From contig CAVRCF010000005.1 of the NCBI GenBank assembly GCA_963719505.1, positions 736,001-800,000 of the forward strand: DNA of 64,000 bases. Reading direction: 5' to 3'. Below, piece by piece: positions 8,500 through 28,944 of the stretch (positions are counted from its first letter, which is position 1; each line of letters begins with the position of its first letter). The stretch comes from Halobacteriovoraceae bacterium (GTDB lineage: Bacteria; Bdellovibrionota; Bacteriovoracia; Bacteriovoracales; Bacteriovoracaceae). The notes beneath the pieces were generated by a model. That model searched no databases, was not told the DNA's origin, and was given only the letters and a program-made list of their open reading frames with translations. The translations under genes were made by a program, and so were the position numbers.

Positions 8500-8591
8500 A
8501 GTTTAGAAAGTTACACAACATAAACAACTAAAATTGAGGCATGCTGTATTCATGTGACATATCCTTTTTATAAACTAACAAAGGAAGTGAT

Positions 8592-9074: not shown

Positions 9075-9105
9075 TAAACGACTGTAAGTCAGACTTAAAG
9101 CTGGC

Positions 9106-12426: not shown

Positions 12427-12784
12427 ATTCTTTTTTATTATGCTTTCTGCGAATAGAATCGAGACCTCTTTGAATCTTCTTATTTTTTAGAAATCTCTCT
12501 CTCAAGCTTCTCGTAACCTTTGTATCACTTATATAAAGCCCCACAAAAATAGTTATAAGTCCCTGACCTGGCATAAAGAGCATCAAAATACCAAGTAAGA
12601 CTAAAATTAAGCCCAAGAGATTTCTCATGACTTTCACTATCCAAGACTCATTACGCTCTTTCTTTCTAAAATAATCACTTGGTATTTTAAGCAGCCATAT
12701 ATAGGTGCCCAGTGATCCCACAAGGAAAAAAACCACAGAAATTACAGATATAAGAAAACCATACTTGCTAAAAAATTCAATCAT
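12416..12784 (-). CDS. PGPGW-domain small membrane protein
   Basis: IPSDYF and GILMLFMPGQGLITI motif. Confidence 0.75.
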   Translation of the reverse strand: MIEFFSKYGFLISVISVVFFLVGSLGTYIWLLKIPSDYFRKKERNESWIVKVMRNLLGLILVLLGILMLFMPGQGLITIFVGLYISDTKVTRSLRERFLKNKKIQRGLDSIRRKHNKKEFTF

Positions 12785-12890
12785 TCGTTTACCATTTTTC
12801 TAGTTATTTAAACAAAACTCAAAAAAGCTCTGGAACTTCAATAGTTCAACTTAGTTTATCCTAGCTTAGCATCGTTAAAAAAGGAACTAA

Positions 12891-14168
12891 ATGAAAGTAG
12901 TATTATTGTTGTTGTTGGTCTTAAATTTTGCACAAGCTCAAAAGATTATTTCCCCTAAAGATTATGACTACCCTATGATAAGTAATCTAGAGGCGACATT
13001 TGGGGTGGCTTCCCTCGCTCCAGTCGCTGGATCAGTTTGGTGGGATATCAAAATTTCACCAAAAAAGAGGTATATTAATGGAAAACTTTCCCTCATCGAT
13101 ATCAGATTTTATAAACCGCAAAAAAGATGCAAGGAACAAACAAAGAGCCTTGTCTTTATTCTCACAGGAGTCACGGGAAGTGCATCTGATGGTATCGCCA
13201 ACCAATATGCCCATCAATTGACCCAAGAGTGCCATCACGCTCTCATACTCCCCTCTATCTTTAATCAAAACTTCGTCAACTCTTCAAGCTCTACCGGTGT
13301 CGTTGGTAACAGCTTGTACGATATGAAAGATTTTTATGATTTTATGAAAAAGTCTGTCTCTTACATAGAGGAAAATCACGACCTCATATTCAACAATTAC
13401 TCATTATTGGGTTACTCCCTAGGAGCGTTGACTTCGGCCTATATCCATAAACTAGATGAAGATCAAAAGAGCTTCAATTTTGAAAAGACTCTCCTGATAA
13501 ATCCACCTGTAGATCTCGACTATTCCCTGAGTAAAGTTGATAACTTTAAAAGTAATTTAAAGAAGATTGGAAAAGTAAAAAGAATTAGACTTCTGGCCAA
13601 AATTGGCAAGCATGTGGCAATTCACAAAAGAGTAAAAACAAATCGAGTTGTCTATTTGAATTTTATTAACAGCACCAAAATGGCGGATTTTCAATATAAA
13701 GCAATGATTGGATTTGATCTTTCTAAAGAGCTAACGGACATCATTCTTTGCTCGAAAGATGTTCTAAAATCGGTCCATGGAAGGGACCTAGGTATAATCC
13801 CCAACTATAGACGAAGAATTCAGAAGAAATTGGCAAAAATGTTTGGCTACAAAGACTATTTTTTAAAGTTTGTCATGGGCTACCGAGAAGATTTTGATAA
13901 CTTACCTCCAATGGACTACAAAGACTTCATTTCACAAAACTCAATAACAAGTCTAACTCATTGGCTTAAAACTCATAATGATATCTACATAATGCATAAT
14001 AAAGACGATTTCATCATTTCCCAATCAGATATTGAGTACCTGAAAGAAACTTTTGGCGACAGACTTACTCTCTACCCAAGAGGTGGACACATGGGAAATA
14101 TTTGGCATGATGAAAATGTTAAACAAGTAAATTCAATTATAGGATCAAATAATCTAATGGCTAAGTGA
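12891..14168 (+). CDS. Exported alpha/beta hydrolase
   Basis: Signal peptide, GYSLG nucleophile elbow, HNKDD, GGHMG. Confidence 0.8.
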   Translation: MKVVLLLLLVLNFAQAQKIISPKDYDYPMISNLEATFGVASLAPVAGSVWWDIKISPKKRYINGKLSLIDIRFYKPQKRCKEQTKSLVFILTGVTGSASDGIANQYAHQLTQECHHALILPSIFNQNFVNSSSSTGVVGNSLYDMKDFYDFMKKSVSYIEENHDLIFNNYSLLGYSLGALTSAYIHKLDEDQKSFNFEKTLLINPPVDLDYSLSKVDNFKSNLKKIGKVKRIRLLAKIGKHVAIHKRVKTNRVVYLNFINSTKMADFQYKAMIGFDLSKELTDIILCSKDVLKSVHGRDLGIIPNYRRRIQKKLAKMFGYKDYFLKFVMGYREDFDNLPPMDYKDFISQNSITSLTHWLKTHNDIYIMHNKDDFIISQSDIEYLKETFGDRLTLYPRGGHMGNIWHDENVKQVNSIIGSNNLMAK

Positions 14169-15770
14169 ATCTATAATCGCGTTGGTATCGAAAGGTTTAC
14201 TGACGTAACCATCAAAGCCTAGCTCATAACATCTGTCTTTGCCATCTTGGTTTGATGAGGCTGAGAAAGCTATTATTTTTTGATCTTTGTTTTTCTTAGT
14301 TTTCATTTTTTCAAAAGCTTCAAAACCTGTCATATCAGGGAAGTTTAAGTCTAAAAAAACAGCATCAATGCTATCGTCAAAAAGCTCTATTGCCTGCTTA
14401 CCAGACTCGGCTTCAACCATTTCATAACCGAAGTCCCGCATGTAGTGTTTGAAAAGAAAACGATTCTCATAAACGTCATCTGCGATTAAAACTTTTTTAA
14501 AGTTGATCAAAGGTGACGATTCATTTACTGGTAGGTGATTTGTGGCGTGACCACTCATTTTATATTTTAAAACGGGAAGTGAGAGTCTGAAATGAGAACC
14601 TACGCCAAGCTTTGTACTCACTAACTCAACCGTTCCACCAAGAAGGTCAGAAATTTCTTTAGTAATAGCAAGTCCCAAGCCCGTTCCTTTAAAATTCTCT
14701 AAAATGGATGCATTGGCTTGCTCAAAGGGATGAAAGATCTTTTCGGACTCAACATGGTCCATCCCTATCCCCGTGTCTATAACATCGACGATAAGCTTTT
14801 TATCATGTTTATCAAAATCCACATTAAACTGAACTGTTTTATTCTTAGAGAATTTAATTGCATTGGACAAAAGATTCAGAATAATCTGTTTCAAAAGAGT
14901 TGAGTCAGTTGAAATTCTGCTTGGAACTTTCTGAGTGATGTCTAAATTGAATGTGACATTATTATTGATCGCATTTATGGCAACCAAATTATAAGTTTGT
15001 CTGAGGAAACTTTTTGTACTAAACATCGTTTTGTTTTGCATTAACTTATTTGATTCAAGCTTCGAGAAATCTAAAATGTCTCCAATTAGCTCAAGAAGAT
15101 AATTTGAATTCGACTTCAAAACTTTTAAAGTGTTTTTTATTGAAGGATTCATAACTCCGGCAAGCTCTTCTTCTAAGACATCGACATAACCTAATACTGA
15201 AGTCAAAGGTGTCCTCAGTTCGTGGCTCATTGATGAAACAAAAGCTGTGTTACTTCTGGCCACTTCATTGAGATGATCTCTTTTTTTTGTAGCTTCAATA
15301 ATATGCATAATTTCATCAGCAATGATTTCAAGTTGTTTTTTTTGAACAGTATCAAGTTTATGAGGTTTCCGATCAATAACACAAAGAGTTCCAATATTAT
15401 AACCGTCTGAGGTTTTTAAGGGCTTTCCTGCATAATATCTAATGGAAGGATCGTTTACGACAAGTGGGTTATCGCTAAAGCGCTCATCTTCAAGTGCGTT
15501 TTCTATCTCAAATATCTCATCTTGATTAATAGCATGCCCGCAAAATGATACCTCTCGAGGAGACTCATCTAGGTTTGTTCCATGTTTTGCTAAAAACCAC
15601 TGCCGATCTCTATCAACAAGGCTAACTAAAGAGACAGCGCAGCCAGTAATTGTGGAAGCTAGATAGACGAGATTATTGAGTCTTTTATTTGACTCTGAAT
15701 CCAAAAGATTTAGATCAACTAAAGCTTTTAGTCTTTCATCCTCATTATGAGGTATATCAGGATTTTTCAT
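14154..15770 (-). CDS. GAF-domain hybrid histidine kinase with receiver
   Basis: GAF (SFCGHAI, RYYAG.PL, GTLCVID), SHELRTPL, NLLSNAIKF, GTGLGL, C-terminal REC. Confidence 0.92.
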   Translation of the reverse strand: MKNPDIPHNEDERLKALVDLNLLDSESNKRLNNLVYLASTITGCAVSLVSLVDRDRQWFLAKHGTNLDESPREVSFCGHAINQDEIFEIENALEDERFSDNPLVVNDPSIRYYAGKPLKTSDGYNIGTLCVIDRKPHKLDTVQKKQLEIIADEIMHIIEATKKRDHLNEVARSNTAFVSSMSHELRTPLTSVLGYVDVLEEELAGVMNPSIKNTLKVLKSNSNYLLELIGDILDFSKLESNKLMQNKTMFSTKSFLRQTYNLVAINAINNNVTFNLDITQKVPSRISTDSTLLKQIILNLLSNAIKFSKNKTVQFNVDFDKHDKKLIVDVIDTGIGMDHVESEKIFHPFEQANASILENFKGTGLGLAITKEISDLLGGTVELVSTKLGVGSHFRLSLPVLKYKMSGHATNHLPVNESSPLINFKKVLIADDVYENRFLFKHYMRDFGYEMVEAESGKQAIELFDDSIDAVFLDLNFPDMTGFEAFEKMKTKKNKDQKIIAFSASSNQDGKDRCYELGFDGYVSKPFDTNAIIDSLSH

Positions 15771-15832
15771 GCGGTATTTGTATCACAATATGAAAAACTA
15801 GACAGTTAAAATCTTAAGGATATCTAAATTTT

Positions 15833-16450
15833 TTATAATTTGAAAAACTCTTTTATCCCCATCAATATATTATTTGCTGCCATTGAGGCTAAAATCAGTC
15901 CCATTACTTTACTGATAACAATAGCCCCAGAGTTTCCAATTCGGCGATGAATTTTATTCGATAGGATCATTAGGATATAGTTAATTAAAAGAATCAATGC
16001 CATAACAAGTGCTGTCATGACCTGATTAGACACACTGTGTCGTGTGTTGTCAGTCAAAAGTACTATTGCCAAAATAGCTCCCGGACTTGCAATGGAAGGT
16101 ATGGCCAGCGGAAAAATGGCTGCTTCGTCCTCATCCTTAACCAGCTGAATCTCTTCTTCTGGCTTACTGCTTCCAAAAATCATGTTAATTGCAAACAAAA
16201 ACAGGATAATTCCACCAGAGGCTTGAAAAGCAGCTAATGGTACTCCTATGGATTTTAAGACGATTTCCCCAACAATAAGAAAAAATAATAGGACTCCAAA
16301 GGAGACAAAAGAGGCAAACTTTGCGATCGCTTTCTTTTCAATCTCGTCATAGCCTTTTGTTACTGCGATAAAGACTGGCACTGTTCCAATGGGATCTATG
16401 ACAGACCAAAGAACAATAAAGGTACTTACAACGTCATCTAATTCAATCAA
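15833..16450 (-). CDS. MarC family membrane protein
   Basis: IDPIG.VPVF, FPLAIPSIASPGAI, MGLILA. Confidence 0.9.
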   Translation of the reverse strand: MIELDDVVSTFIVLWSVIDPIGTVPVFIAVTKGYDEIEKKAIAKFASFVSFGVLLFFLIVGEIVLKSIGVPLAAFQASGGIILFLFAINMIFGSSKPEEEIQLVKDEDEAAIFPLAIPSIASPGAILAIVLLTDNTRHSVSNQVMTALVMALILLINYILMILSNKIHRRIGNSGAIVISKVMGLILASMAANNILMGIKEFFKL

Positions 16451-16468
16451 AAATAAATCTCCTCTTTC

Positions 16469-17359
16469 CTATAAAGAAGATTTTATCTCATTAACAACTT
16501 CTTCGATAGCATTATTACTATGCTCAGACAGTATAAGTGCGCAAATTTTGGTTTTGGAAAAGGAGAAGTTTCCAATATGGAATAGTCTGCCCGCAATAAG
16601 TTCTTCGTTCACGGAAATTTTGGGAACAATAGAGAAACAACTATTCGACTCAGTTGCGGCTAGCATAATATCAATATTATCCGACTCTCCAACAACATTT
16701 GGTACAACCCCACATTCATAGAAGTACTTATCAACCTCTCGTTGAAGATGATTGAGAGGAGTATATTTAAAATATGGCATCCCATCTAAGTCATTTGGAA
16801 CAACAACTACTTTTTTTGAAAAATTCTCTCCACAAACAAAAACATACTCTGGTTTTTTAATATCGACGACTTCAATAGCATCACTTAGCTGGTGCTCGGC
16901 CAAACTTTCAGATAGAACAAAGTCTACTTCCCTTGCGTGCAGTTTATCGATGAGTCTCTCTGTTTCCACTTCAACAATACTGACGCCAATATCAGGCTTT
17001 TCAAAAAGAGGCTTTAGTAGCTTAGATGCGTATGTTCTACTAATTGAAGATGTTATCCCAATTTTGAAGTGAGATTTTGTATTCATTTGTTGTCTATAAG
17101 AAAAGCTTGAAACCATCAATTCTGCTTGAAAGAACATTTTCTTTGCAAAATCGAGAATATATTCACCCTGCTCATTTAACTTGAGGGCCCTACCATTTCT
17201 GTTAAAGAGCTTGTGTCCCATTTGTTTTTCCAATTGCTTTAATTGTTGGGAAAGTGTCGGCTGAGAGACATTGAGAACTTTAGTCGCTTTTGCCAAAGAT
17301 CCTTCAGATGCAATAACGAAAAAGTAATAGAGGTGATTAAAGTTGATGTTATTAAGCAT
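16469..17359 (-). CDS. LysR family regulator (NhaR-like)
   Basis: NFNHLYYF..ASEGS..SQPTLSQQLKQLE HTH. Confidence 0.9.
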   Translation of the reverse strand: MLNNINFNHLYYFFVIASEGSLAKATKVLNVSQPTLSQQLKQLEKQMGHKLFNRNGRALKLNEQGEYILDFAKKMFFQAELMVSSFSYRQQMNTKSHFKIGITSSISRTYASKLLKPLFEKPDIGVSIVEVETERLIDKLHAREVDFVLSESLAEHQLSDAIEVVDIKKPEYVFVCGENFSKKVVVVPNDLDGMPYFKYTPLNHLQREVDKYFYECGVVPNVVGESDNIDIMLAATESNSCFSIVPKISVNEELIAGRLFHIGNFSFSKTKICALILSEHSNNAIEEVVNEIKSSL

Positions 17360-17667: not shown

Positions 17668-19116
17668 TTGAACGTCATGTTGGATAATACTATTGCTTCA
17701 ATTAGTACCTACTCTGATCTTATTATTTTTTTCGCGTATACCAGCATCGTGGCAATTCTCATCTACTATTTTTTTATTAAGCTGCACATGAAGTTGAATT
17801 TATTTTTCATCTCCTTCAGCGGATTTATTCTGGTGAGTGGGTTAAACCATTTAGCCATATTCTTAAATAGCTTCAACGACGTTATTTTCCTCGTTTCGAT
17901 TCTGAAAATATTAAAAGCTTTTACAGCTTTATTGGCAACTGTAACACTATGGCCTTTTGTCAGAGATGCTCTCTACTTAAAAAGTCTCACAGAGAATGAA
18001 AGACAGAAAAGAGACCTCAAGATCTTCAAAGAAGCCTATGAAGATGCATCAATTGGCTTGGCGCTCCTAGATAAACAAGGACAACTGCTGAAAGCCAACA
18101 AAGAGCTCATTAGACTTTTTGGTTATGGTGAGGAATATACTCTTCACAGCAACATATACAAATTTATTAATAAGGTTGAAGCCAAGAAAAACGAAGATCT
18201 GTTTAAAAAGATCTATAAAAGCTCAGATGAGGTCTTTGATTTTAAATTGAAGTTTGTTAAAAATTCTGGCGAGGATTTTTGGGGAAAAGTTCAGCTTAAA
18301 GTGCACAGGAAAGACTCTGGTGAAATCGACTTTATTTCTGTCCAGATTACCGATATAACCAGAGAACTCGAAATTGAAAAAGAGCTTCAACGAGAGAGGG
18401 TAAATGCCGAAAATGATAGAAAGCTCGAGTATCTAAAAAGTATGGCTTCAAGTGTAGCCCACGAAATAAATAATCCTCTAACAATCATCAGTGGAGCGGC
18501 ACAAATCATTGAGATTCTTCTAAAGAAAGAAGATATCGATAAAGAAAAAATAAACCAAGAGATTAAAGATACAACTGAGTCGGTGTTAAGAATATCTAAA
18601 ATTATAAAATCTCTCAAGATGCTCTCTAGTGAGAAAAAAGAGCAACTTGAAAGCATACCTGTCTCCTCTATTTTGGACAATGTCATTGAGCTATGCCAAG
18701 CAAAGTTTGTTTCAAACGGCGTCACATTTGAAGTGACACAAGATGAAGGTATCTTTTTGAAAAAAATTAACTGCAATAAAATGCATATGTCACAAGTTTT
18801 AATTAATATGCTAAACAATTCTTTTGAAGCTCTTGAGAACTTAGATGAAAAATGGATAAATATTAAGGTCTATCAAAAAGAACATTCAATAGTCTTCGAC
18901 ATAGTAGATAGTGGTCATGGTATAAATGAAGAAAATAAAAGCAAAATATATCTTCCATTTTACACGACAAAATCTCAAGGTGAGAATGCTGGTCTTGGTT
19001 TGAGCTACTCAAAGTCAGTCATTCAAAATTACAATGGATCTTTAGAACTAATTGAAGATAAAAATACAACCTTTAGAGTTTCACTTCCCTTTGAAAGTGA
19101 ATTAGAAGTCGCCTAA
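17668..19116 (+). CDS. PAS histidine kinase with ethylene-receptor-like 3-TM N-terminus
   Basis: SDLII..AY.SI and FIL.SG.NH TM motifs, PAS, AHEINNPL, GLGL. Confidence 0.85.
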   Translation: MNVMLDNTIASISTYSDLIIFFAYTSIVAILIYYFFIKLHMKLNLFFISFSGFILVSGLNHLAIFLNSFNDVIFLVSILKILKAFTALLATVTLWPFVRDALYLKSLTENERQKRDLKIFKEAYEDASIGLALLDKQGQLLKANKELIRLFGYGEEYTLHSNIYKFINKVEAKKNEDLFKKIYKSSDEVFDFKLKFVKNSGEDFWGKVQLKVHRKDSGEIDFISVQITDITRELEIEKELQRERVNAENDRKLEYLKSMASSVAHEINNPLTIISGAAQIIEILLKKEDIDKEKINQEIKDTTESVLRISKIIKSLKMLSSEKKEQLESIPVSSILDNVIELCQAKFVSNGVTFEVTQDEGIFLKKINCNKMHMSQVLINMLNNSFEALENLDEKWINIKVYQKEHSIVFDIVDSGHGINEENKSKIYLPFYTTKSQGENAGLGLSYSKSVIQNYNGSLELIEDKNTTFRVSLPFESELEVA

Positions 19117-19728: not shown

Positions 19729-20586
19729 ATGAATATTATTGAACCTCAGCAAAGGGTGACACCGATGCTTGTTTTCATAGGAGCTTTGATAGTGGATGGT
19801 GCCCATGTGTATTCAACATTATTCGTCACTTACTTTGATTCAAATATCAAAAGTAAAATTAAACTTCATTTGATCCTGGCCCCTTTGTTGACAATTTTGA
19901 TCTGCTATCTTCTTTATATTTATGAGTTTAAAGCCTTACTTCTTTCTTTAGTAGGAAGCTTTGCTCTTTTTCATTTCATTCGCCAAGAAGCTGGCTGGAT
20001 GAAATTAGCGGGAAGGCTCGACCCGAAGCAGCCGCAAATTCTCAATAAGGTAGATCTCTTTACCTCTTATATCTTTACGATAACTCCCGTTTTATATCTT
20101 ATATCAGAGAGGAATCGTGGCTTTTGGCTCTCCAGAGGAGATCTTCCTATCATCCCAAACCTTTACTGGGACACTGGGAAATACATAATGCTTTTTACCG
20201 GTTTGGTTTGGCTTGGCTTTAATATAAGACACTGGAGAAAAACCAAACTGATTAACGGCTCGAAACTTTTAATCATTCTTAGTAATCTCGCTGCTTGGTT
20301 TTTCGCCCTAACTTATCTTGCTGGATCTTGGCTAGGACTCCTTCTCATAATCCTCCCTCATGGAGTTCCCTACTTCTTTTTGGTCGCAAAGGAGCACAAT
20401 AAAAAATCTCCAAATAAGTTAACAATTTATCCTTTTCTATACCTACTTTGTGTTTTGTTATATTTTTTTGAAACAAGAGTTGGTGGTCTTAAAAATCCAA
20501 TATTGACATCAATTGCGATAATGCCTCAAATAGTTCACTACTATCTGGATGGAATCATTTGGAAGAGATCAATCCAATCTCGCTAA
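19729..20586 (+). CDS. Polytopic membrane protein with conserved-looking His motifs (true start may lie upstream, near 19627)
   Basis: Multiple TMs; DGAHVYST, HFIRQ..G, PHG.PY, HYYLDG.IWK. The frame stays open upstream without an ATG. Confidence 0.7.
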   Translation: MNIIEPQQRVTPMLVFIGALIVDGAHVYSTLFVTYFDSNIKSKIKLHLILAPLLTILICYLLYIYEFKALLLSLVGSFALFHFIRQEAGWMKLAGRLDPKQPQILNKVDLFTSYIFTITPVLYLISERNRGFWLSRGDLPIIPNLYWDTGKYIMLFTGLVWLGFNIRHWRKTKLINGSKLLIILSNLAAWFFALTYLAGSWLGLLLIILPHGVPYFFLVAKEHNKKSPNKLTIYPFLYLLCVLLYFFETRVGGLKNPILTSIAIMPQIVHYYLDGIIWKRSIQSR

Positions 20587-20640
20587 GCAACTGTTTTTAC
20601 TTATAGCCAGAGTAAATTTGGCTAATTTCTTGATTCAATA

Positions 20641-20669
20641 TTGAACAATATGCTACCTTTAAGTATAAA
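20641..20669 (+). promoter_or_regulatory. Candidate sigma70 promoter for the peptide/RRE operon
   Basis: TTGAAC-N17-TATAAA ending about 64 bp before the first peptide start. Confidence 0.45.
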
Positions 20670-20732
20670 CAAAAGTTTAATAAAATATAATCAGCACAAA
20701 ATCCACCCAAGTTTGTGACAGGGTGCTTTAAT

Positions 20733-20819
20733 GTGGATAAATTTAAAGAGTTTTTTGGTGAAATTAAAGTCACAATTCTAGATTTAGATCTTGAGGCACA
20801 AGATGATGCTGGAACATAA
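20733..20819 (+). CDS. Putative precursor peptide 1 (28 aa): MDKFKEFFGEIKVTILDLDLEAQDDAGT
   Basis: GTG start after RBS-like AGGGTG; shares the FFG-x-I-x-V-xx-(V/L)DLD motif with the downstream peptides. Confidence 0.7.
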   Translation: MDKFKEFFGEIKVTILDLDLEAQDDAGT

Positions 20820-20842
20820 TAAAAGTACAATAAGGTAAATGC

Positions 20843-20965
20843 ATGAAAGAGTTAGAAGACTTTTTTGGAACGATTGAAGTCAATCAAGTAGATCTCGATG
20901 AAAACGACTTAGAGATTTTTGCCAATATGGCGGCTGAAGAAACTCTAGAGAAGGCAATTGAGTAA
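20843..20965 (+). CDS. Putative precursor peptide 2 (40 aa): MKELEDFFGTIEVNQVDLDENDLEIFANMAAEETLEKAIE
   Basis: TAAGG RBS plus ATG; near-identical to the next ORF, with synonymous differences. Confidence 0.8.
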   Translation: MKELEDFFGTIEVNQVDLDENDLEIFANMAAEETLEKAIE

Positions 20966-20993
20966 AACTGAAAAAATACAATAAGGCAAAACT

Positions 20994-21116
20994 ATGGAAG
21001 AGGTAGAAGATTTTTTTGGAACGATTGAAGTCAATCAAGTAGATCTCGATGAAAACGACTTGGAGATTTTTGCCAATATGGCGGCTGAAGAAACTCTAGA
21101 GAAGGCAATTGAGTAA
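20994..21116 (+). CDS. Putative precursor peptide 3 (40 aa): MEEVEDFFGTIEVNQVDLDENDLEIFANMAAEETLEKAIE
   Basis: TAAGG RBS plus ATG; 151-bp offset from peptide 2. Confidence 0.8.
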   Translation: MEEVEDFFGTIEVNQVDLDENDLEIFANMAAEETLEKAIE

Positions 21117-21145
21117 AACTGAAAAAATACAATAAGGCAAAACTA

Positions 21146-21281
21146 ATGAAGAGTTAGAAGAATTTTTTAGAACATTAGAACAATTGAAGTCAATCAAGTA
21201 GATCTCGATGAAAATGACTTGGAGATTTTTGCCAATATGGCCCTCGAAGAGCCAACAAATAAAGAACTTTCATTTGAGTAA
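21146..21281 (+). pseudogene. Frameshifted peptide copy 4 with a different C-terminus (...IEVNQVDLDENDLEIFANMALEEPTNKELSFE)
   Basis: Same RBS, but ATG AAG AGT TAG (one base short of copy 2) plus an 8-bp duplication TTAGAACA at 21167-21182. Confidence 0.7.
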
Positions 21282-21296
21282 CCTCGGAGAAAAGAA

Positions 21297-21572
21297 ATGA
21301 ATAAAACATACTCTTTAAATCCAAGTCTTTTCTTCTCATCAAATGATGAAAAGTTAAATATTATTAGTCTAGAAGATAAGAATAACGAAGTTATATCTTT
21401 AACGAAAGTAAATGCTCTTATATTTCCAGATATCGTGGATGGAAAAACCCAAAATGAAATTCTTGAAAAAGTTAAAGCTCTACCCGACTGCCCGGAAGAG
21501 AAGGAAGTTGAAAAATATTTGTCTAATTTTCTCGTAAAATTAGAAGAATTGAACGTTATTGTTCCCAAATAA
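21297..21572 (+). CDS. Stand-alone PqqD-family protein / RiPP recognition element (RRE)
   Basis: 91 aa with a beta-rich N-half, then SLTKVNALIF..IVDGKT.NEI...EV..FL.KLEE.NVI, the PqqD/lasso-B1 pattern; RBS ggag. Confidence 0.75.
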   Translation: MNKTYSLNPSLFFSSNDEKLNIISLEDKNNEVISLTKVNALIFPDIVDGKTQNEILEKVKALPDCPEEKEVEKYLSNFLVKLEELNVIVPK

Positions 21573-22782
21573 AATCTTTCAAAAGAAGTTGAATAAATCG
21601 GCTCACTCCATCAATCGAATGTTGATCAGCATCAAGTCCAGAAAAGCGAAAACAACTATTTGCTTCATTGGTATTAGAATCCTCAAAAGCTCCTAAAAGA
21701 CATGAGTCCAGCCCAAAACTCGTGCCCCAAAAAACGGGAAGTTCAGCTTTTGCTTTGAGTTTATTAACTCTTAAGGCAAAATTCTCATCAGTTGATTTTA
21801 TCTTGATGAGCGAAAATAGCTCATGATGGACATTTGTTCTAAACGGCTTATGACCATGCTTAAGCACATTCACCTCTATATCTTTAAGATTTTTTTTGAA
21901 GCGCCCTACTCTTTTTAGGTTGAGATGATGATATTTCTCACTCCAAAAGAATGGAAGTATATTCTCTAAATTTGAAAATCCCCCATAACGTCCAAAATAG
22001 CGGTGAAAGAAATTTTCTGCACTCTTGTCTCTTTTTTCTTTAAAGCGATCAAAGTATTGAAGATTAAAAGCATAAAGACTTCCAAGTTGAGCATACTCCT
22101 CTCCAAAAGAGTCAGTCTTAATAAGACTCTTTATGATAAAAACAGCCGCACCTGAAGACTTAAGTTTTATAAAAACTTCTTTTTCAAGAAGTGAGCCTGT
22201 TAAAAGACAAGTCGCATCGACAACAATAATATCGTACGCTGAAAAATCAAGCGCCTCATAAGTTGAAGTCTCAGAAACACTATAATCAAGTATTAAGCAT
22301 CGATCTCCACCGCTTTGATCTTTCTGTTCTAAAGACTTAATAACTTTATTTGTGTCAAAATAAATGGACGTCACAGGTCTTACAAACTCAATATTAGTAT
22401 CGATTGATGTAACAAAAGTCAGCACGATCGCCATTGCACCTTGAGCGCTAGAGGTGAAAGCGGCAAACTCCTCACCACCGCCAATATCAACCAAAGAGTG
22501 GGGATGAATAAAACGAAACTTATTATCTCCCATAAACCTATACCCTTCCCTTGAATAAGTATAAGAGATGTTCTGACCATAGAAGTTGAGCGGCTTATTC
22601 ATCAGATTCGTTGTTGGAAATTCTATCTTATCGATTGCCTCTTTTCTGATGTGTCTAAAAAGATATTTTTTGGCAACTCTAATGTCTTCTGCACAATGAA
22701 CGGGATGAAGAGATGCCTTTACGCCAGCAAACGTACACAAATAGTCAATTTCCTCTCTTTTAGACTCAATATAGGATGACAC
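21556..22782 (-). CDS. Divergent PLP-dependent enzyme, Cys/Met metabolism (cystathionine gamma-synthase/lyase-like) family
   Basis: YSREG (cf. YSR.GNP), FTSSAQGAM (FSSGMAA), YFDT (YGGT), VVDAT (VVDNT), SLIK (S.TK lysine), TSFG, FRFS. Confidence 0.65.
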   Translation of the reverse strand: MSSYIESKREEIDYLCTFAGVKASLHPVHCAEDIRVAKKYLFRHIRKEAIDKIEFPTTNLMNKPLNFYGQNISYTYSREGYRFMGDNKFRFIHPHSLVDIGGGEEFAAFTSSAQGAMAIVLTFVTSIDTNIEFVRPVTSIYFDTNKVIKSLEQKDQSGGDRCLILDYSVSETSTYEALDFSAYDIIVVDATCLLTGSLLEKEVFIKLKSSGAAVFIIKSLIKTDSFGEEYAQLGSLYAFNLQYFDRFKEKRDKSAENFFHRYFGRYGGFSNLENILPFFWSEKYHHLNLKRVGRFKKNLKDIEVNVLKHGHKPFRTNVHHELFSLIKIKSTDENFALRVNKLKAKAELPVFWGTSFGLDSCLLGAFEDSNTNEANSCFRFSGLDADQHSIDGVSRFIQLLLKDFIWEQ

Positions 22783-24497
22783 ATATTCTCCGTAGATTTA
22801 AAATATCCTACATGAATCATAAAACAAAAACTGAACTCTTTGTAGGAATAAATTTGGGTCATCATGATGCAAGCTGTTGTGAACTCGATACAGCTTCTCA
22901 AAGTTTTACTATTTATGAAGAAGAAAGACTCTCAAGAGTTAAAAGTAGAGGGTTTTATCCCTTTTTATCTGTCAACCAACTTCAAAACTCTTCCTTCTCA
23001 AAGCTCGATAACAAACAGGAAGTAAAAGTTTCCTTCTCTAGCTTTATGACTGATATTGAAAAATCTTGGGAACTTTCTCAAAAGAAGAAAGAAGCTTCCT
23101 TTATTCTTCTCAACGAGAATTTTCAACCTAAGAAAATCTCAAAAAGTATAATCCATCATGAAGCTCACCTCTTTTCAGCCCTACCTCTTGTAGATACGAG
23201 CGCTGACTATCTTGTCGTCGTTGCTGACGGCTGTGGCAGTAACCTAGATGATCTAGAACTCCACTCTTTTTTTGATCAAGATACTTCTCAAGCGGAGGGC
23301 TATGAAATGATCTCAGCTTATTCTTGGCGGCAAAGATCACTAGAACAAGTGGATAAAAAGTGTAGCCTTCTGTATTGGAAGAAAAATAAAAAGGACTCCT
23401 TCTATCCAGCTTCATTTTTTACCAGTGCAGCTAAAATCGTCTTTGGAGATTGGAAGCATAGTGGAAAAGTCATGGGTCTTTCCGCTTACCACACCGGTGA
23501 GCTTTATTCTCGAGACGAGCTTTTTGATAAAATGTACAACGCCGAGGTTCCTGAAAAACTTGATCCGACGGCTTTTGATAATTTATCCGACCCCATTCTT
23601 AAAGAAAAACAAAAGATTTGTGCCAGTGTTCAGTACTACTATGAAGAGTTTATGTTCGAATACCTTGAGACTTTACAAAAAAAGACAAAGCTAAAAAATT
23701 TAATCTTAATTGGTGGCTGTGCTCTCAATTGTGTTTTTAATGAAAAGCTCAGAAAGAAAAAAATCTTTGCAAATATTTATGTCCCACCATGGCCAAATGA
23801 CGAAGGGATCTCTTTTGGTTCCACAGTGGCATCCTACTACAATGAAAACGCAAAACTCCCTCTTATTAAAAACACGAAGTCTCCCTTTAGGGGAATGAAT
23901 TTTCAATATAGCGAACGTGATATAATAGAACAGTTTAAGGATTATACAATTGAGCCTTTTAATATTAATACAGTTGTCGAGCTATTTATCAAAGGTGAAG
24001 TTATCGGTTGGTATGAAAATCAAAGTGAATGTGGACCACGGGCCCTTGGTCATCGCTCCATTTATGCTGACCCCTTTAAAGCCGGGATAAAAGACTTTCT
24101 TAATAGTAAGATTAAATTTAGAGAAAACTTTAGACCTTATGGATGCTCCATCTTAGAGGAGGACCAAAGCCTATTCTTTGAAGATCACCAAGGACTCAAC
24201 TCCCCCTTTATGTCATTTGCCCCCATAGTCTTAACTGAGCAAAGACAAAGGCTCAAGGAGGTTATACATAAGGATCAAAGTATACGAATTCAAACTGTCG
24301 ATGACACGTTTGACGGTTTAAAAAAGTTCTTAGAAAAAATTAAAGAAAAAAGAGGAAATTCTCTCATTATTCATACAAGCATGAATATTAATAAGATGCC
24401 CATTGTAAATTCCATTCATGATGCAAAGGAATTCTTTGCTAAAAGTAATATCAAATACATGGTCTTTAATGACTACTTAATCTCAAAGCCTGTATAA
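22776..24497 (+). CDS. O-carbamoyltransferase, NodU/CmcH/TobZ family
   Basis: HDAS, EEERLSRVK, HHEAH, DG.G, GKVMGLSAY, GGCALN, GPRALGHRSI, KFRENFRP, RIQTV; the start may be 22812. Confidence 0.92.
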   Translation: MTHILRRFKISYMNHKTKTELFVGINLGHHDASCCELDTASQSFTIYEEERLSRVKSRGFYPFLSVNQLQNSSFSKLDNKQEVKVSFSSFMTDIEKSWELSQKKKEASFILLNENFQPKKISKSIIHHEAHLFSALPLVDTSADYLVVVADGCGSNLDDLELHSFFDQDTSQAEGYEMISAYSWRQRSLEQVDKKCSLLYWKKNKKDSFYPASFFTSAAKIVFGDWKHSGKVMGLSAYHTGELYSRDELFDKMYNAEVPEKLDPTAFDNLSDPILKEKQKICASVQYYYEEFMFEYLETLQKKTKLKNLILIGGCALNCVFNEKLRKKKIFANIYVPPWPNDEGISFGSTVASYYNENAKLPLIKNTKSPFRGMNFQYSERDIIEQFKDYTIEPFNINTVVELFIKGEVIGWYENQSECGPRALGHRSIYADPFKAGIKDFLNSKIKFRENFRPYGCSILEEDQSLFFEDHQGLNSPFMSFAPIVLTEQRQRLKEVIHKDQSIRIQTVDDTFDGLKKFLEKIKEKRGNSLIIHTSMNINKMPIVNSIHDAKEFFAKSNIKYMVFNDYLISKPV

Positions 24498-25615
24498 CTA
24501 GAATATACTTCGCGATAGAGAGACTTTCCACTTTTTTTCCTAAAGGGAAAGCTTTTGCGATAGGTTTTAGAAAAAAGACGAAAAGTTTGGCTTTGCCCTA
24601 AGTACTCATTTTTTTGCTGAATGATTTCACTTATTTTAAGATTAAAGGATTCGTACGATAGCTGTGTTGAAAGATCGTGATCAACGATACTATTCACTCT
24701 CCCTTTCAAGCCCATAAGTGCGCTTAAAAGATTCTTTTTATTTATTCTTGGAATGAGATCTTCATCAACTTCTACGCCAACCATATCTGAGAAATCATTA
24801 TAAGCCCCATGCCCTCCCCAGTTGCTTAACACCAGTTGGTGCCCTTTTAAAAAGCCCTGGGCAATGCTTACGCCAAAATCTTCATCGTGGTAGGTACTCA
24901 TTGAAACCGAGTACTGACAGTTACCCATCACTTGTTCAAGAGAGCCTTGCTCTAGACTTCCATGATACTCAATTCCTCCATCTGACTTTTTAATCAAAGA
25001 GTAAAAAGTATCCTTAAAAACATTCATATCAACTTTATAGCCATGAAGATGATAGCCCCTATCGTGGAAATCTCCAGCTATATGAAGCTTTAACTGAGAA
25101 TTAAAACGTCTCGCATTGATAAAGACACTCATGAGTTCAAGAATATTTTTTTGAGGAGTTAACCTTCCTGCATAAATGAGACTTTTTCCCGCTGATGAAG
25201 TCACTATTGAAGGTTTCATAGGATAAGGAACAATATGACAAGCACCACTTTGAACCAAGCTTTGAATCTGATCTTTTGATCTTGGGCTGGCCGCAAGAAG
25301 TGAGACATTTTCTCCAAGTAAATTGTCTCCAATATAATTCCAGCGATCAAGTTCTACTGTCATATTTCCATAGACCGGTAAAATAAAATGATTTTTTTTA
25401 CCTAAAAGAGCGGAAAGTGAATCTTGCCACTTAAAATGGTCTGACATAAAAAATATATCTGATTCTGGCAAAATTGAATCAACCTGGGCGGGATCAATAT
25501 AATGAACTTCAAATGGAGCGCGATCAAGCGCCTCACAAATATACTTTTGAATGATATTACAACTAAGCCAGAAATGATCTTCATCCACTTTTAAGACATA
25601 AAGTTTATTCTTCAT
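24473..25615 (-). CDS. GT-B glycosyltransferase (GT4-like)
   Basis: YAGRLTPQKN, HIAG, EDFGVSIAQ, SNWGG; start moved to ATG 25615. Confidence 0.85.
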   Translation of the reverse strand: MKNKLYVLKVDEDHFWLSCNIIQKYICEALDRAPFEVHYIDPAQVDSILPESDIFFMSDHFKWQDSLSALLGKKNHFILPVYGNMTVELDRWNYIGDNLLGENVSLLAASPRSKDQIQSLVQSGACHIVPYPMKPSIVTSSAGKSLIYAGRLTPQKNILELMSVFINARRFNSQLKLHIAGDFHDRGYHLHGYKVDMNVFKDTFYSLIKKSDGGIEYHGSLEQGSLEQVMGNCQYSVSMSTYHDEDFGVSIAQGFLKGHQLVLSNWGGHGAYNDFSDMVGVEVDEDLIPRINKKNLLSALMGLKGRVNSIVDHDLSTQLSYESFNLKISEIIQQKNEYLGQSQTFRLFSKTYRKSFPFRKKSGKSLYREVYSSYTGFEIK

Positions 25616-26690
25616 AAAGGCCTTTAAAAAACGTTGCCTTAAGTTTTTGCAAAACTTTAAAATTTTGCGCAATAATAAAGAGGTACACAAAGTTTTTCCC
25701 TGGAGGGTTTAGAAACATAAAACCATTTCGATCTCCTTTTTTATAGACAGGCCAGCGAGATTCATCAAGAGAGAATCCTTTTTTAAAACTTAATTCAAAA
25801 AATTGTCCTACTCCCGATTCAGGCAAGAAATTTCGTAACTCAGCTAAAAGCGATCCCATATTAATCCTATAATTAACTTCACACAGGGGATAAATGCCAA
25901 TGCGATCTCCATCTTTAAATAAAAAACCATCAATCGTGAGATTTTGCTGAAGATCGAATTTCTTTAACTCCTCTAGCAGACTGATAGAAGTTGAGACTGC
26001 TTTATTGTAGTCTTCAAGAGCATCTAAGGATTTTAAGTAAATATCCTTATCTTCATTCTTATCAAAAATAAGCCCACCAAAGTAGTGACCAGTCTTGTTC
26101 ATCATCGTAAGATAATCGAAACTCTCATTCGTAACTGGATTATAGTGAATTGAATAGTCAAGAATTCTCTCATAGAAAGGCTCAAGAACCTTTACCTCTT
26201 TAAAAGGCTTTGCATCGGAAGCTCTTTCAATCACTTCAAAGCCTTGTCCCGCTTTGTAGAAGCAGTTCTTTAAAAGCCACTTTCTGTTTTTAAAATCAAT
26301 CTTTTTGAGATCGTGATCGGAAGTGAGAAAGTGAAAATCTTTTGGAAGGAGATTGTTCATCTCTAGAAATTTATAAGTCCAAGCTTTGGAATTTAAATTT
26401 TTCTCCAGCTCTATATCAGTTAACTTACCATACCAGTTAACAACTCCTCTTTCATCCTTTGTGAATCTTGGAATAATAAACCCAAATCCTTTCAACTTAT
26501 CGATAAAATCCACAGAATAATCCTCTAAAACAAAGAGTTCACAGTCTGGATCTTTATTGATGGCAAAAAATAAAAATTCAGCACATCCCCACACTTCTCG
26601 ATTTCTTAAAACTCGCTCTGGACTAAAGCCAAGTTCCTGCGCAAAGAGTTCAACTTCATACTCTGAATTTACTCTATATTTGATTGTCAT
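25605..26690 (-). CDS. ATP-grasp fold ligase-like protein
   Basis: LNSK, WLLK...AGQG, VLEPF.ERILDYS, IDG....IYPLCEVNYR. Confidence 0.75.
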   Translation of the reverse strand: MTIKYRVNSEYEVELFAQELGFSPERVLRNREVWGCAEFLFFAINKDPDCELFVLEDYSVDFIDKLKGFGFIIPRFTKDERGVVNWYGKLTDIELEKNLNSKAWTYKFLEMNNLLPKDFHFLTSDHDLKKIDFKNRKWLLKNCFYKAGQGFEVIERASDAKPFKEVKVLEPFYERILDYSIHYNPVTNESFDYLTMMNKTGHYFGGLIFDKNEDKDIYLKSLDALEDYNKAVSTSISLLEELKKFDLQQNLTIDGFLFKDGDRIGIYPLCEVNYRINMGSLLAELRNFLPESGVGQFFELSFKKGFSLDESRWPVYKKGDRNGFMFLNPPGKNFVYLFIIAQNFKVLQKLKATFFKGLYEE

Positions 26691-27694
26691 AGAAAAACGA
26701 TATCTGCTTGATCGATTCCGTTAAAGGAATGATTCCAAGCCGTAGAGTATCCACTTACATTTTCAACGATAATATTATCACCGATGCAAATACTTAGTGG
26801 ATCTAATTGAATAGTCGCTAAAACGTCACTCTCATAGCAGCTTGGACCTGCAACCTTTAAATCTTCATTCTTTTTCTCAGTAACAGGTTTACAATGCCTG
26901 TAGCGAATTTTTACTCTGTTATCAATCCATCTAAGATGGCAAGTTGGCGACAAAGAACAAATAATCGTTTTGTTGTAAAAAGCGAGAACTTTCCCAACCG
27001 CCACGCCGGAGCTTGCGGAAATCCATCTTCCAGGCTCAAAGTAGAGGGTTGTGTTGGGAAGGTTTTGATAGGCATATTTTGTTATACTTTTGATTTCATC
27101 AAGACTCAAAGGTGCGAAGCCCCCCCCAAAATTGATAGATAAGTTTCTGTTTGCTGCTATAGAGATGAGGCGATCAATCATTTCTTCATAGTCTGTTACT
27201 TTATTTTCTAACCCTCCAAAGTGAAGGTGTAGATGTTTAATGGATGGAAACTTGGCTAAAGTATCCTCTAAGTCATTTAATTTGACTCCAAAGCGAGAAC
27301 CCTCTCCAAGGAAGTCTGTCGATACTCGTAAGGAAATATTATCAAACTTGCTCACTCTACCCAAGTCCTCGAGGCAATTGATGTCATTGACTGAATTCTC
27401 TAAAGGTGAATAAAATGGTGAAGAATTCCAAACGATCTTTTTGTCGAGTTCGGAGATCAAATTTTGCTCGTTAATATTTGAAACATCAAATCCAAAAAGA
27501 AACTGTGAAGCAAGTTTAAGAACTTCGGTATTAGGAAATGACTTCACGGGAAAAAGAAACTTAACCCTATCATTTTCAAGGCTCTTAAGACCCTCAAAGT
27601 TTGCCAGCAAATCTTTTTTAGAAAAGTAGTAACAGGTACTTCTTTCCATGCTCTCAAACTCTCGTAAACAAACCTTAGTTGATAAATACTGCAT
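26687..27694 (-). CDS. PLP-dependent decarboxylase, fold type III (diaminopimelate/ornithine/carboxynorspermidine decarboxylase family)
   Basis: FPVKSFP (PLP lysine), SRFG, HLHFGG, NFGGGF, EPGRW, GPSCYESD, GYS; the start may be 27649. Confidence 0.88.
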   Translation of the reverse strand: MQYLSTKVCLREFESMERSTCYYFSKKDLLANFEGLKSLENDRVKFLFPVKSFPNTEVLKLASQFLFGFDVSNINEQNLISELDKKIVWNSSPFYSPLENSVNDINCLEDLGRVSKFDNISLRVSTDFLGEGSRFGVKLNDLEDTLAKFPSIKHLHLHFGGLENKVTDYEEMIDRLISIAANRNLSINFGGGFAPLSLDEIKSITKYAYQNLPNTTLYFEPGRWISASSGVAVGKVLAFYNKTIICSLSPTCHLRWIDNRVKIRYRHCKPVTEKKNEDLKVAGPSCYESDVLATIQLDPLSICIGDNIIVENVSGYSTAWNHSFNGIDQADIVFL

Positions 27695-27873: not shown

Positions 27874-28944
27874 ATGACAAATATAAAAATTGACCCAAAA
27901 GCCATTTCAAACCTAGAGAATTTTCAAAATCCAACAGATATTCAATTTGGAAAAACTTTAGTTCCAGCACTTTTAAAGTGTGAATATCGAGACGGTCAAT
28001 GGGGTGAGCTTGAATTCTTACCCTATCACAAGATACTCATTGATCCGGCAGCTAAGGTTCTTCATTACGCACAAGAAATTTTCGAAGGACTAAAAAGTTA
28101 TAAGAACGATGAAGATGAGGTTTTCTTATTTAGACCTGAAGAAAATGCAAAAAGATTCAATAAATCAGCAGTGAGAATGGGAATGCCTGAACTTCCGGAA
28201 GAGATCTTTATTGATTCTCTCAAGTGCTTAGTTAAGCACTCTCACCACACATTTTCTAAAGAGCTTGGAGATTCGTTTTATTTAAGACCTTTTATGTTCG
28301 GAGATGAACCTCAATTAGGTGTCAAACCATCTTCAACTTACCAATATTATCTTATTGGGGGCCCAGCAGGAAACTACTTCACAAAGCCCTCGGTGAAAGT
28401 CAGAGTTGAAAAAGAGTCCCACCGAGCATCTTCAAAAGGGATTGGAAGTGCAAAGACTGGTGGGAACTATGCTGCCAGTATGGCCGCAAATAAAGTGACC
28501 AGCGAGCAAAATTATGACCAAACACTTTGGCTTGACCCCGTCTATGGTGAGTTTATTGAGGAATTGTCAGGAATGAACTTCTTCGCAGTTATCGATGATG
28601 TTTTAGTGACACCTGAGCTTGGAAATTCAATTCTTCACGGAATAACGAGGGCATCACTTCTAGAGCTTGCCCAAAGCTTTGGTATAAAGGTTCAAGAAAA
28701 AAAGATTTCTATAAATGAACTTATGGACCAAATAGATTCCAAAAGTTGTACAGAGCTTTTTGCATCTGGAACGGCATCTGTTCTTACTCCAATAGAATGT
28801 TTGAAACTCGACGATAGAGAAGCATTCGTCAAACATCCAAATGGAAAAATATCAGTGAAATTAAAAGAAGCCCTTCAAAAACTTCAAACAGGTCGAAGTG
28901 AAGATCCTTTTAATTGGAGACAACAGGTCGATCTTACAAAATAA
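27874..28944 (+). CDS. ilvE: Branched-chain amino acid aminotransferase
   Basis: LHYAQEIFEGLK, YLRPF, AKTGGNYAAS, EELSGMNFF, ILHGITR, SGTA. Confidence 0.93.
   Translation: MTNIKIDPKAISNLENFQNPTDIQFGKTLVPALLKCEYRDGQWGELEFLPYHKILIDPAAKVLHYAQEIFEGLKSYKNDEDEVFLFRPEENAKRFNKSAVRMGMPELPEEIFIDSLKCLVKHSHHTFSKELGDSFYLRPFMFGDEPQLGVKPSSTYQYYLIGGPAGNYFTKPSVKVRVEKESHRASSKGIGSAKTGGNYAASMAANKVTSEQNYDQTLWLDPVYGEFIEELSGMNFFAVIDDVLVTPELGNSILHGITRASLLELAQSFGIKVQEKKISINELMDQIDSKSCTELFASGTASVLTPIECLKLDDREAFVKHPNGKISVKLKEALQKLQTGRSEDPFNWRQQVDLTK

Follow-up and report, generated by a model that had tools for sequence, protein, structure and literature searches.

A small-peptide gene array beside an RRE-fold gene as the probable precursor set of an undescribed RiPP-type cluster in Bacteriovoracaceae

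Identification of the peptide gene array

The 64,000-nucleotide (nt) stretch of DNA analyzed here, hereafter the window, comes from a Halobacteriovoraceae bacterium (GenBank assembly GCA_963719505.1, contig CAVRCF010000005.1, positions 736,001 to 800,000 of the forward strand), and contains an array of small open reading frames (ORFs) at 20733-21281 on the + strand. The array was confirmed to consist of genuine small genes, with three intact ORFs of 28 (or 34), 40, and 40 amino acids (aa) and one decayed copy. It probably encodes the precursor peptides of an undescribed cluster, spanning about 19729-27694, for a ribosomally made peptide with post-translational modifications (RiPP), of the type that depends on a RiPP recognition element (RRE). 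The ORFs most likely encode the starting peptides because they lie just upstream of a gene for an RRE-fold protein, within a cluster of enzyme genes that some predatory bacteria have in common. This cluster was found mainly in Bacteriovoracaceae, and we regard the array as its precursor set with fair confidence. The RRE-guided logic of RiPP biosynthesis is already known, and the cluster and its peptide family are probably undescribed; searches of the full-text literature on RiPPs, RREs, carbamoyltransferases, and Bacteriovoracaceae gave no description of either, a scope outside which the supplementary RRE-Finder tables lay.

Copy 1 (20733..20819, +) encodes 28 aa from the GTG at 20733, or 34 aa from an alternative in-frame GTG at 20715. 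Copy 2 (20843..20965, +), the candidate precursor, starts with ATG and encodes 40 aa, as does copy 3 (20994..21116, +), which shares 95% identity with it. The fourth unit (about 21145..21281, +) is 77% identical to copy 2 where it matches residues 8-38 of the latter. Tandem Repeats Finder detected the repeat at 20821-21241 with a period of 151 nt, 2.7 copies, 91% matches, and a score of 672. When the four units were aligned, the fourth had lost the register of its ATG (CTATGG to CTAATG), carried an altered Gly codon in FFG and an 8-nt insertion that shifts the frame, and ended in a tail unlike those of the other copies, and was thus regarded as decayed. It is accordingly probable, as a part of the joint precursor reading, that one copy was pseudogenized after tandem duplication and that three remained intact.

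The four peptide sequences quoted in the original prediction, which had been made from the DNA sequence alone, were all located on the + strand, and the synonymous differences listed there as a sign of coding were recovered as well (GAC/GAT and TTA/TTG between copies 2 and 3, AAC/AAT between unit 3 and the broken unit). In addition to their two synonymous changes, copies 2 and 3 differ by two non-synonymous ones, K2E and L4V. The peptides of the window lack Cys, as had been claimed, and copy 2 holds 13 Asp/Glu residues versus 2 Lys residues in its 40 positions. The C-terminal residue is Glu, or Thr in copy 1 only. Copy 1 keeps the motif as FFGEIKV, and its tail is short and divergent, without the block of Met and small residues found near the C-terminus of the others. 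A single-peptide search of the window's own genome assembly matched only the three local copies, and in a large protein collection the protein of copies 2 and 3 forms a called protein cluster derived from the window's own contig only.

Possible translation signals were found in front of all three intact ORFs: AAGG is located 7-8 nt 5' of the ATG in copies 2 and 3, and AGGG is located 5' of the GTG of copy 1, in agreement with the ribosome-binding sites predicted earlier. The sigma70-like promoter predicted along with them did not hold up, being not above chance, as a consensus scan found 2 sites versus 4.5 +/- 2.6 expected in shuffled sequences. A terminator-like hairpin at 20604-20624 (+), a consensus match only (1 found versus 0.3 +/- 0.5 in shuffles), separates the membrane-protein gene upstream from the array. 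The Rfam search of the array region gave no family at E <= 1, and the RNA fold of the repeat unit was no better than that of shuffled sequences (z -1.22; 24 of 200 shuffles folded equally well or better). The absent Rfam match and the unremarkable fold ruled against a reading of the repeats as non-coding RNA.

The adjacent gene encodes a predicted RRE-fold protein

The gene located at 21297..21572 (+), starting 16 nt past the end of the array, encodes a discrete PqqD-like protein of 91 aa. The AlphaFold2 model of this protein, calculated with 20 aligned homologues, reached a pLDDT of 88.7 and showed the strand-strand-strand/helix-helix-helix topology of RiPP recognition elements. Foldseek comparison of the model with the PDB gave as the best match the lasso peptide B1 protein TbiB1 with leader (5v1v_A; E 3.5e-5, TM 0.81/0.83, rmsd 1.9 A). 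The top 14 rows were all RiPP RRE proteins or domains, and the RRE domains of ThcOx, TruD, LynD, and PbtF appeared among the lower-ranked matches. The 91-aa protein is therefore predicted by its model to have an RRE fold. Six of the 20 homologues also matched Pfam PqqD (PF05402), with a best E of 4.6e-10.

A multi-copy peptide family in related loci

The cluster in relatives was compared over 26 loci, namely 24 genome loci (the window included) and two metagenome loci, all of which were selected by a hallmark cluster gene for a divergent fold-type-I pyridoxal phosphate (PLP) enzyme of 408 aa (21556..22782, -, in the window). The gene counts over these loci are lower bounds, as many contigs are short. 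The motif D[FY]xx[FL]GxI was found to be common to small ORFs beside the RRE gene or the PLP-enzyme gene, first in three relatives. The first hidden Markov model (HMM) of the family, built from nine seeds (three from the window and six from relatives), detected non-seed members in seven further loci with E of 2e-15 to 4e-3. The iteration of an HMM free of the window's peptides converged at 50 frames or proteins, and with this model 13 of the 26 loci carried one to three peptide copies each. Peptides were present in 13 of the 21 RRE-bearing loci versus none of the five RRE-less loci. The original prediction had proposed that the motif would be conserved near PqqD homologues in other genomes, and the outcome favored its reading, as small ORFs with FG-x-I and variable tails were found in these 13 loci beside the RRE gene or the PLP-enzyme gene.

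The peptide ORFs directly precede either the RRE gene or the PLP-enzyme gene (e.g. in loci L058, L009, L063, L064, and L056), the latter being the case in L063, L064, and L056. On visual inspection, an AGG/GGA-type motif was seen in the 25 nt preceding 16 of 22 peptide ORFs. The ratio of non-synonymous to synonymous divergence (pN/pS) was below 1 in all 15 paralogue or orthologue pairs compared, which were hand-picked and not independent, with a range of 0.08-0.65 (e.g. 0.08 at pS 0.90). These codon-level comparisons indicate that the multi-copy family in the relatives is under purifying selection. The profile search of 5.8 billion proteins retrieved 26 members at E <= 0.01, none of which had a Pfam domain and which were named 'hypothetical protein' or carried bare gene calls only; NCBIfam recognized none of 30 family members.

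The alignment of the family showed a variable, often Lys-rich N-terminus, followed by the conserved motif, an acidic middle, and a loose block with a tail. The block near the C-terminus consists of a hydrophobic residue, often Met, and then two or three small residues, being Gly-Gly/Ala-Ala-like in some peptides. The tail after the block varies strongly, being rich in Arg in one subgroup and acidic in the window's peptides, and the C-terminal residue is E, D, R, K, N, S, V, P, or T. Across 30 relatives the motif was kept while the tails varied. This pattern agreed with the leader/core layout proposed for the window's peptides, with the modification that the family has D[FY]xx[FL]GxI as its motif, of which the window's version is shorter. 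Likewise, the strong acidity noted for the peptides applied to the copies in the window and did not extend to the family, as several relatives have Arg-rich tails.

Damaged copies were also observed in the arrays of relatives, at 3034-3237 (-) in L064 and 11501-11644 (-) in L008, one with a frameshifted tail and one with an internal ATG as its only start. Array turnover by duplication and decay thus seems typical.

Relationship of the window's peptides to the family

The genome of the window holds 138,660 small frames from stop to stop, and all of them were scanned with window-free models. With a smaller relatives-only HMM, copy 2 ranked 14 (E 31), copy 3 ranked 24, copy 1 ranked 435, and the broken copy ranked 2183, and with the larger window-free HMM, the ranks were 68 (E 110), 74, 617, and 828, respectively. 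As the intergenic stretch of the array holds only 26 small frames, a rank of 14-68 would occur there by chance with a probability of about 0.003-0.013. The hhalign comparison of the window's three peptides with those of 30 relatives gave a P of 6.8e-4. In the reverse direction, an HMM built from the window's peptides only was run over 13,667 small frames of the relatives, and its top 26 matches included seven family members from four independent subgroups versus about 0.1 expected. Three more of the top matches were small frames beside cluster genes.

The motif in the window (EDFFGTIEV) is two residues shorter between Asp-Phe and Phe-Gly than that of most relatives. The same short spacing was seen in small frames beside cluster genes at L067 9313-9471 (-), L068 7784-7993 (-), and L069 6270-6434 (+), which have FG-(T/E)-(I/V) and Cys/Pro-containing tails and score below the threshold of the family HMM. 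They may form a sister peptide subfamily nearer to that of the window.

The weak similarity allows another explanation, in which the ORFs of the window are unconnected to the cluster, as a young tandem duplication, of either a small orphan gene or non-coding DNA, that by coincidence precedes the RRE gene and resembles the relatives' peptides by chance. Besides the similarity to the relatives' family, which is not significant alone, it could draw on the decay of one copy and the divergence of copy 1, and on the finding that copy 2 has no close homologue among the 5.8 billion proteins beyond the window's own. We consider this explanation improbable, as the array occupies the position that the peptide genes have in related clusters, and the Phe-Gly-x-Ile motif, the acidic middle, and the small-residue block recur. 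Copy 2 falls in the top 0.05% of the small frames versus only 26 frames in the intergenic stretch, and the top matches of the window-only HMM are strongly enriched in family members. The ORFs are also open with Shine-Dalgarno-like sites, and the region showed no RNA-family or RNA-structure signal. The window's peptides are linked to the family only weakly by sequence and mainly by position and architecture. They are positional counterparts of the family and very probably its evolutionary counterparts, although sequence alone gives no proof.

Several results weigh against the precursor reading. The window-free HMM scores of the window's peptides (E 31 and E 110) were not significant, copy 2 and the peptide of the closest relative shared 16 identities in 35 positions by BLASTP (E 0.12), the hhalign probability was 26.8%, and the best match of the window-only HMM in the relatives' frames, at E 0.18, was not significant either. 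Copy 1 appears to be under relaxed constraint, considering its missing C-terminal block and its pN/pS of 0.65 against copy 2. The window-free HMM found no peptide in 8 of the 21 RRE-bearing loci, the window among them, and the PLP enzyme was present in none of the three other genomes of the window's genus. As for the enzymes, PLP enzymes acting on a peptide substrate would be unusual, and no consistent leader peptidase or dedicated exporter was found in the clusters. The 91-aa protein itself gave no Pfam match at E <= 10, PF05402 included, and scored 13.8 bits (E 0.088) on TIGR04353 versus the cut-off of 35, with no NCBIfam threshold reached. Since it stays below the cut-offs itself, six of its 20 homologues match PqqD, and the fold agrees, we regard it as a divergent PqqD relative and not as a model-level member of the family.

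Distribution and composition of the cluster

The profile of the 408-aa PLP enzyme matched 26 of 237 genomes of Bacteriovoracaceae, the family of the window, in 9 of 69 genera. In a sample of the phylum, it matched 14 of 401 genomes, 12 of which belong to the same family. The carriers of the cluster include several Halobacteriovorax-like genomes. The matches in two other families of the phylum were without RRE and peptides, and eight scanned loci with PLP-enzyme homologues in Bradyrhizobium/Acetobacteraceae likewise gave no RRE or peptide match, indicating that these homologues belong to a different context.

Among the 26 loci, an RRE-like gene was detected in 21, the carbamoyltransferase in 18, a PLP decarboxylase homologue in 14, a GT1-family glycosyltransferase in 13, and a His-rich membrane protein in 8 (window included). 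A 361-aa protein was detected in 3, and in one more locus it is fused C-terminally to the carbamoyltransferase. A 2-oxoglutarate (2OG)-Fe(II) oxygenase occurred in 5 loci and an iron-dependent alcohol dehydrogenase (Fe-ADH, PF00465) in 4, the window's not among them, and further variable accessory genes in the relatives encode Zn-ADH, DUF418, MFS, Mem_trans, and acyltransferase proteins. Of the enzymes, the carbamoyltransferase most often showed translational coupling with the RRE gene (L008, L009, L050, L052, L056, L057, and L021). In L058, a tight operon has the order of peptide, RRE, PLP enzyme, carbamoyltransferase, 361-aa protein, and GT1.

Such gene arrangements bear on the idea that the peptides are translated and left unmodified, serving as small acidic regulators of an anti-sigma-like or antitoxin-like kind with the RRE-fold protein as their partner or chaperone. 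RRE/PqqD-fold proteins generally bind peptides, and two-component regulators do border the cluster in the window, as would suit this idea. The bordering regulators are, however, not conserved with the cluster in relatives, and at many loci the peptide genes are found together with tailoring-enzyme genes and in the same orientation, often in tight operons like that of L058, so that we consider a role as unmodified regulators very improbable.

Comparison with known systems

Lasso B1 proteins, as in the TbiB1/TbiA leader complex (PDB 5v1v, 5v1u, and 6jx3), share with the array's neighbor the arrangement of a stand-alone small RRE protein beside short precursor ORFs, and are the best structural matches of the 91-aa protein (TM 0.78-0.85, rmsd 1.9-2.0, identity 17-20%). 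The leader motif here is not the same, and neither the B2 transglutaminase-like peptidase nor the Asn-synthetase-like cyclase of lasso systems was found among the window ORFs at 11284-32001. In L057, an AsnB-type gene with a GATase domain is located nearby.

PQQ biosynthesis uses PqqA/PqqD/PqqE, and mycofactocin biosynthesis uses MftA/MftB/MftC plus a glycosyltransferase, both with a need for a radical S-adenosylmethionine (SAM) enzyme. These systems resemble the present clusters in that the gene of a PqqD-family chaperone comes after that of a short peptide, and in the glycosyltransferase and dehydrogenases of some clusters. They differ in that the examined clusters are without radical SAM enzymes and have multi-copy peptides with unconserved C-termini. 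Regarding the double-glycine leader bacteriocins, no C39 peptidase of an ABC exporter, PCAT included, was found in the window or the flanks of 11 relatives. Pfam scans of the examined clusters also detected no radical SAM enzyme, LanB-like ligase, class-III aminotransferase (PF00202), or methyltransferase. For comparison with graspetides, the 361-aa protein offered an ATP-grasp_3 lead only at rank 22 in the ESM Atlas (score 0.96), with no Pfam match in 4/4 members and no PDB-sequence match.

Daptides, according to the accessible part of their description, undergo RRE-dependent C-terminal modification by an Fe-ADH-type oxidative decarboxylase, a PLP aminotransferase, and a methyltransferase (bioRxiv 10.1101/2023.03.08.531785; PMC12670281). 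The features given there are an invariant C-terminal Thr, a DUF-RRE fusion, a PF00465/PF13561 oxidoreductase, a class-III aminotransferase (PF00202), a methyltransferase, and an RRE-peptidase. As far as this part of the source goes, the clusters studied here are similar in their several similar short precursors, the RRE, the PLP enzyme, and the Fe-ADH in 4 of the 26 loci. They differ in that the C-termini vary, the RRE is discrete, and the PLP enzyme is Pfam-less with a cystathionine-synthase-like fold, besides the missing PF00202 and methyltransferase and the absence of Fe-ADH from the window's cluster. Membership in the daptides was thus rejected on the features available, as the invariant C-terminal Thr, the DUF-RRE fusion, the PF00202 aminotransferase, and the methyltransferase are lacking.

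A NodU-like carbamoyltransferase has a precedent among RiPPs reportedly in the crocagin pathway. Another, StdF, converts Lys to homocitrulline and is presented, in the portion of a 2026 preprint available, as only the second RiPP-associated example, so that just two cases of peptide carbamoyltransferases are described there (PMC13174530). The accessible text of the 2025 RRE-Finder update also notes RRE-carbamoyltransferase fusions (PMC12710340). On the strength of these partial sources, the present cluster resembles the crocagin and StdF pathways in the combination of a NodU/TobZ-type carbamoyltransferase with a precursor peptide and an RRE-containing partner, and differs from them in that MNIO, YcaO/TfuA, and S8 peptidase fusions are absent and Lys is unconserved in the peptides.

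Proposed function of the array and the cluster

According to the precursor reading, which we hold to be the most likely, the peptides would be translated in this organism, and the N-terminal motif (EDFFGTIEV in the window and D[FY]xx[FL]GxI in relatives) would be bound as a strand by the RRE-fold protein, by analogy with leader binding in the solved B1 complexes. The RRE-fold protein would then hand the peptide to the tailoring enzymes, most consistently the NodU-like carbamoyltransferase and the fold-type-I PLP enzyme, with GT1 and the decarboxylase homologue, and in relatives the 2OG-Fe(II) oxygenases or Fe-ADH, as possible accessory enzymes. The modification may fall on variable sequence at the hydrophobic/small-residue block close to the C-terminus, or past this block. 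A speculative scheme is that an amino-acid unit is attached to a side chain and subsequently decarboxylated and carbamoylated. The ORFs with their duplication, the conserved cluster, the RRE fold of the model, and the purifying selection on the relatives' peptides were observed here; translation, binding to the RRE-fold protein, the residues modified and their chemistry, export, and function are inferred.

The same gene content could serve a different purpose, in which the peptides bind the RRE-fold protein as carriers or scaffolds, and the PLP enzyme, the decarboxylase homologue, the carbamoyltransferase, and GT1 assemble an amino-acid-derived small molecule at one of their side chains or termini, from which it is then released. 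Pearlin-type scaffold peptides, LysW-type amino-group carriers, and PQQ and mycofactocin as peptide-derived cofactors are models for such a role. The enzyme set, with two PLP enzymes, a carbamoyltransferase, and GT1, is typical of small-molecule amino-acid/sugar chemistry, and Fe-ADH, Zn-ADH, and 2OG oxygenases accompany some clusters; the lack of a conserved leader peptidase or exporter and the weak ATP-grasp lead for the 361-aa protein point in the same direction. To our knowledge, on the other hand, carrier and cofactor precursors retain an invariant reactive residue, and the C-terminal residue and tail are unconserved across the present family. The presence of several diverged copies at a locus is also better explained by product diversity, the clusters contain neither a LanB-like ligase nor a radical SAM enzyme, and 4/4 homologues of the 361-aa protein gave no Pfam ATP-grasp match. 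A carrier or scaffold role is therefore considered unlikely, and its LysW-type and pearlin-type versions were rejected for want of a ligase partner in the clusters and of a conserved C-terminus.

What sets the cluster apart is that a carbamoyltransferase, two PLP-type enzymes, and three family-less proteins occur together with substrates that can be clearly identified. If the array is the precursor set, the window offers a compact, testable cluster of about 8 kb with known substrate peptides, and at least three of its proteins (the 408-aa PLP enzyme, the 361-aa protein, and the His-rich membrane protein) fit no described family. We see some possibility, which we would put at somewhat less than even, that it is the founding member of a new RiPP class, mainly of predatory Bacteriovoracaceae, in which a discrete PqqD-like RRE would pass multi-copy peptides with a D[FY]xxFGxI leader on to a NodU-type carbamoyltransferase that acts with the newly recognized cystathionine-synthase-like PLP enzyme and a fold-III decarboxylase homologue. 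In that event, the adduct-decarboxylation-carbamoylation chemistry, as one possibility, would be without a described counterpart on ribosomal peptides, with a possible use in predation or competition. PLP enzymes are rare in RiPP pathways, daptides being the only case met in the accessible portions of the literature. The hosts are obligate predators of other bacteria with a little-explored secondary metabolism, so that the product could bear on predation or antimicrobial discovery. The finding is less surprising in view of the many RRE-guided 'orphan' clusters that exist.

Other genes of the cluster and its surroundings

The 408-aa PLP enzyme was modeled by AlphaFold2 with a pLDDT of 87.8 and a pTM of 0.90. 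The protein gave no Pfam match at E <= 10, and Foldseek matched the model to cystathionine gamma-synthase/lyase, ALAS, SPT, and LmbF at E of about 1e-7 (TM 0.37-0.55). Lys222 and Asp189 were invariant across 27 sequences of the family. A homologue of the enzyme with 63% identity was also detected. Among 1.84 billion cluster representatives, 281 belonged to the family at E <= 1e-30, showing that it is small but real, with a function still to be assigned. The Bradyrhizobium homologues (L013, L014, L016-L019, and L011; near position 8000-9300) share 22-26% identity with the window's enzyme, and one of them has a weak Cys_Met_Meta_PP match (E 0.002). Cultured Bradyrhizobium species could provide tractable material for the study of this enzyme family.

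The next gene, 22776..24497 (+), encodes the NodU/TobZ-type carbamoyltransferase of 573 aa (Carbam_trans_C, E 5e-49; Carbam_trans_N, E 4.5e-19; NodU, E 2.9e-37, under the equivalog cut-off). The GT1-family glycosyltransferase gene (24473..25690, -) probably has its real start downstream of the listed TTG. Its own Pfam match is weak (E 3.9e-5, below the cut-off), and its homologues share 33-40% identity, one of them scoring E 4.7e-18 with Glycos_transf_1.

The 361-aa protein (25605..26690, -) is a soluble protein of no known family and without hydrophobic segments, and its ESM Atlas matches were hypothetical Bdellovibrionota clusters, with the ATP-grasp_3 cluster only at rank 22. In L055, a gene at 12735-15374 (-) encodes the carbamoyltransferase (residues 10-544) fused to a homologue of this protein (residues 554-876, E 3e-29), and this C-terminal fusion suggests that the two proteins work together. 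The possibility that the 361-aa protein is a paralogue of the 285-aa membrane protein described below was rejected, given a similarity of E 2.2 and its lack of hydrophobic segments. The gene at 26687..27694 (-) encodes the divergent fold-type-III PLP decarboxylase homologue of the Orn/DAP/carboxynorspermidine family, whose scores (lysA, E 4.3e-12; nspC, E 4.4e-10) fall far below the lysA and nspC equivalog cut-offs.

Upstream of the array, 19729..20586 (+) encodes the His-rich multi-pass membrane protein of 285 aa, which belongs to no described family. It has five hydrophobic segments and gave no Pfam, NCBIfam, or PDB-sequence match, and the ESM Atlas returned 'hypothetical protein' clusters only. 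Its relatives, of about 285-350 aa, share several conserved His, Asp, and Trp positions, and sometimes occur as tandem paralogue pairs; examples are located at 15502-16518 and 16519-17535 in L008 and at 4634-5650 in L058. As a guess, the family might hold a membrane-embedded metal site.

On the other side, the cluster is bordered by a class-IV aminotransferase gene at 27874-28944 (+), which had no BLAST counterpart in the related loci and is thus probably outside the conserved set. Just upstream of the cluster, the gene at 17668-19116 (+) encodes a histidine kinase, in which PAS and HisKA/HATPase domains come after an N-terminal domain that matches the ETR1-like membrane domain of ethylene receptors (PF25487, E 1.4e-10), and adjoins a gene for a single-domain response regulator.

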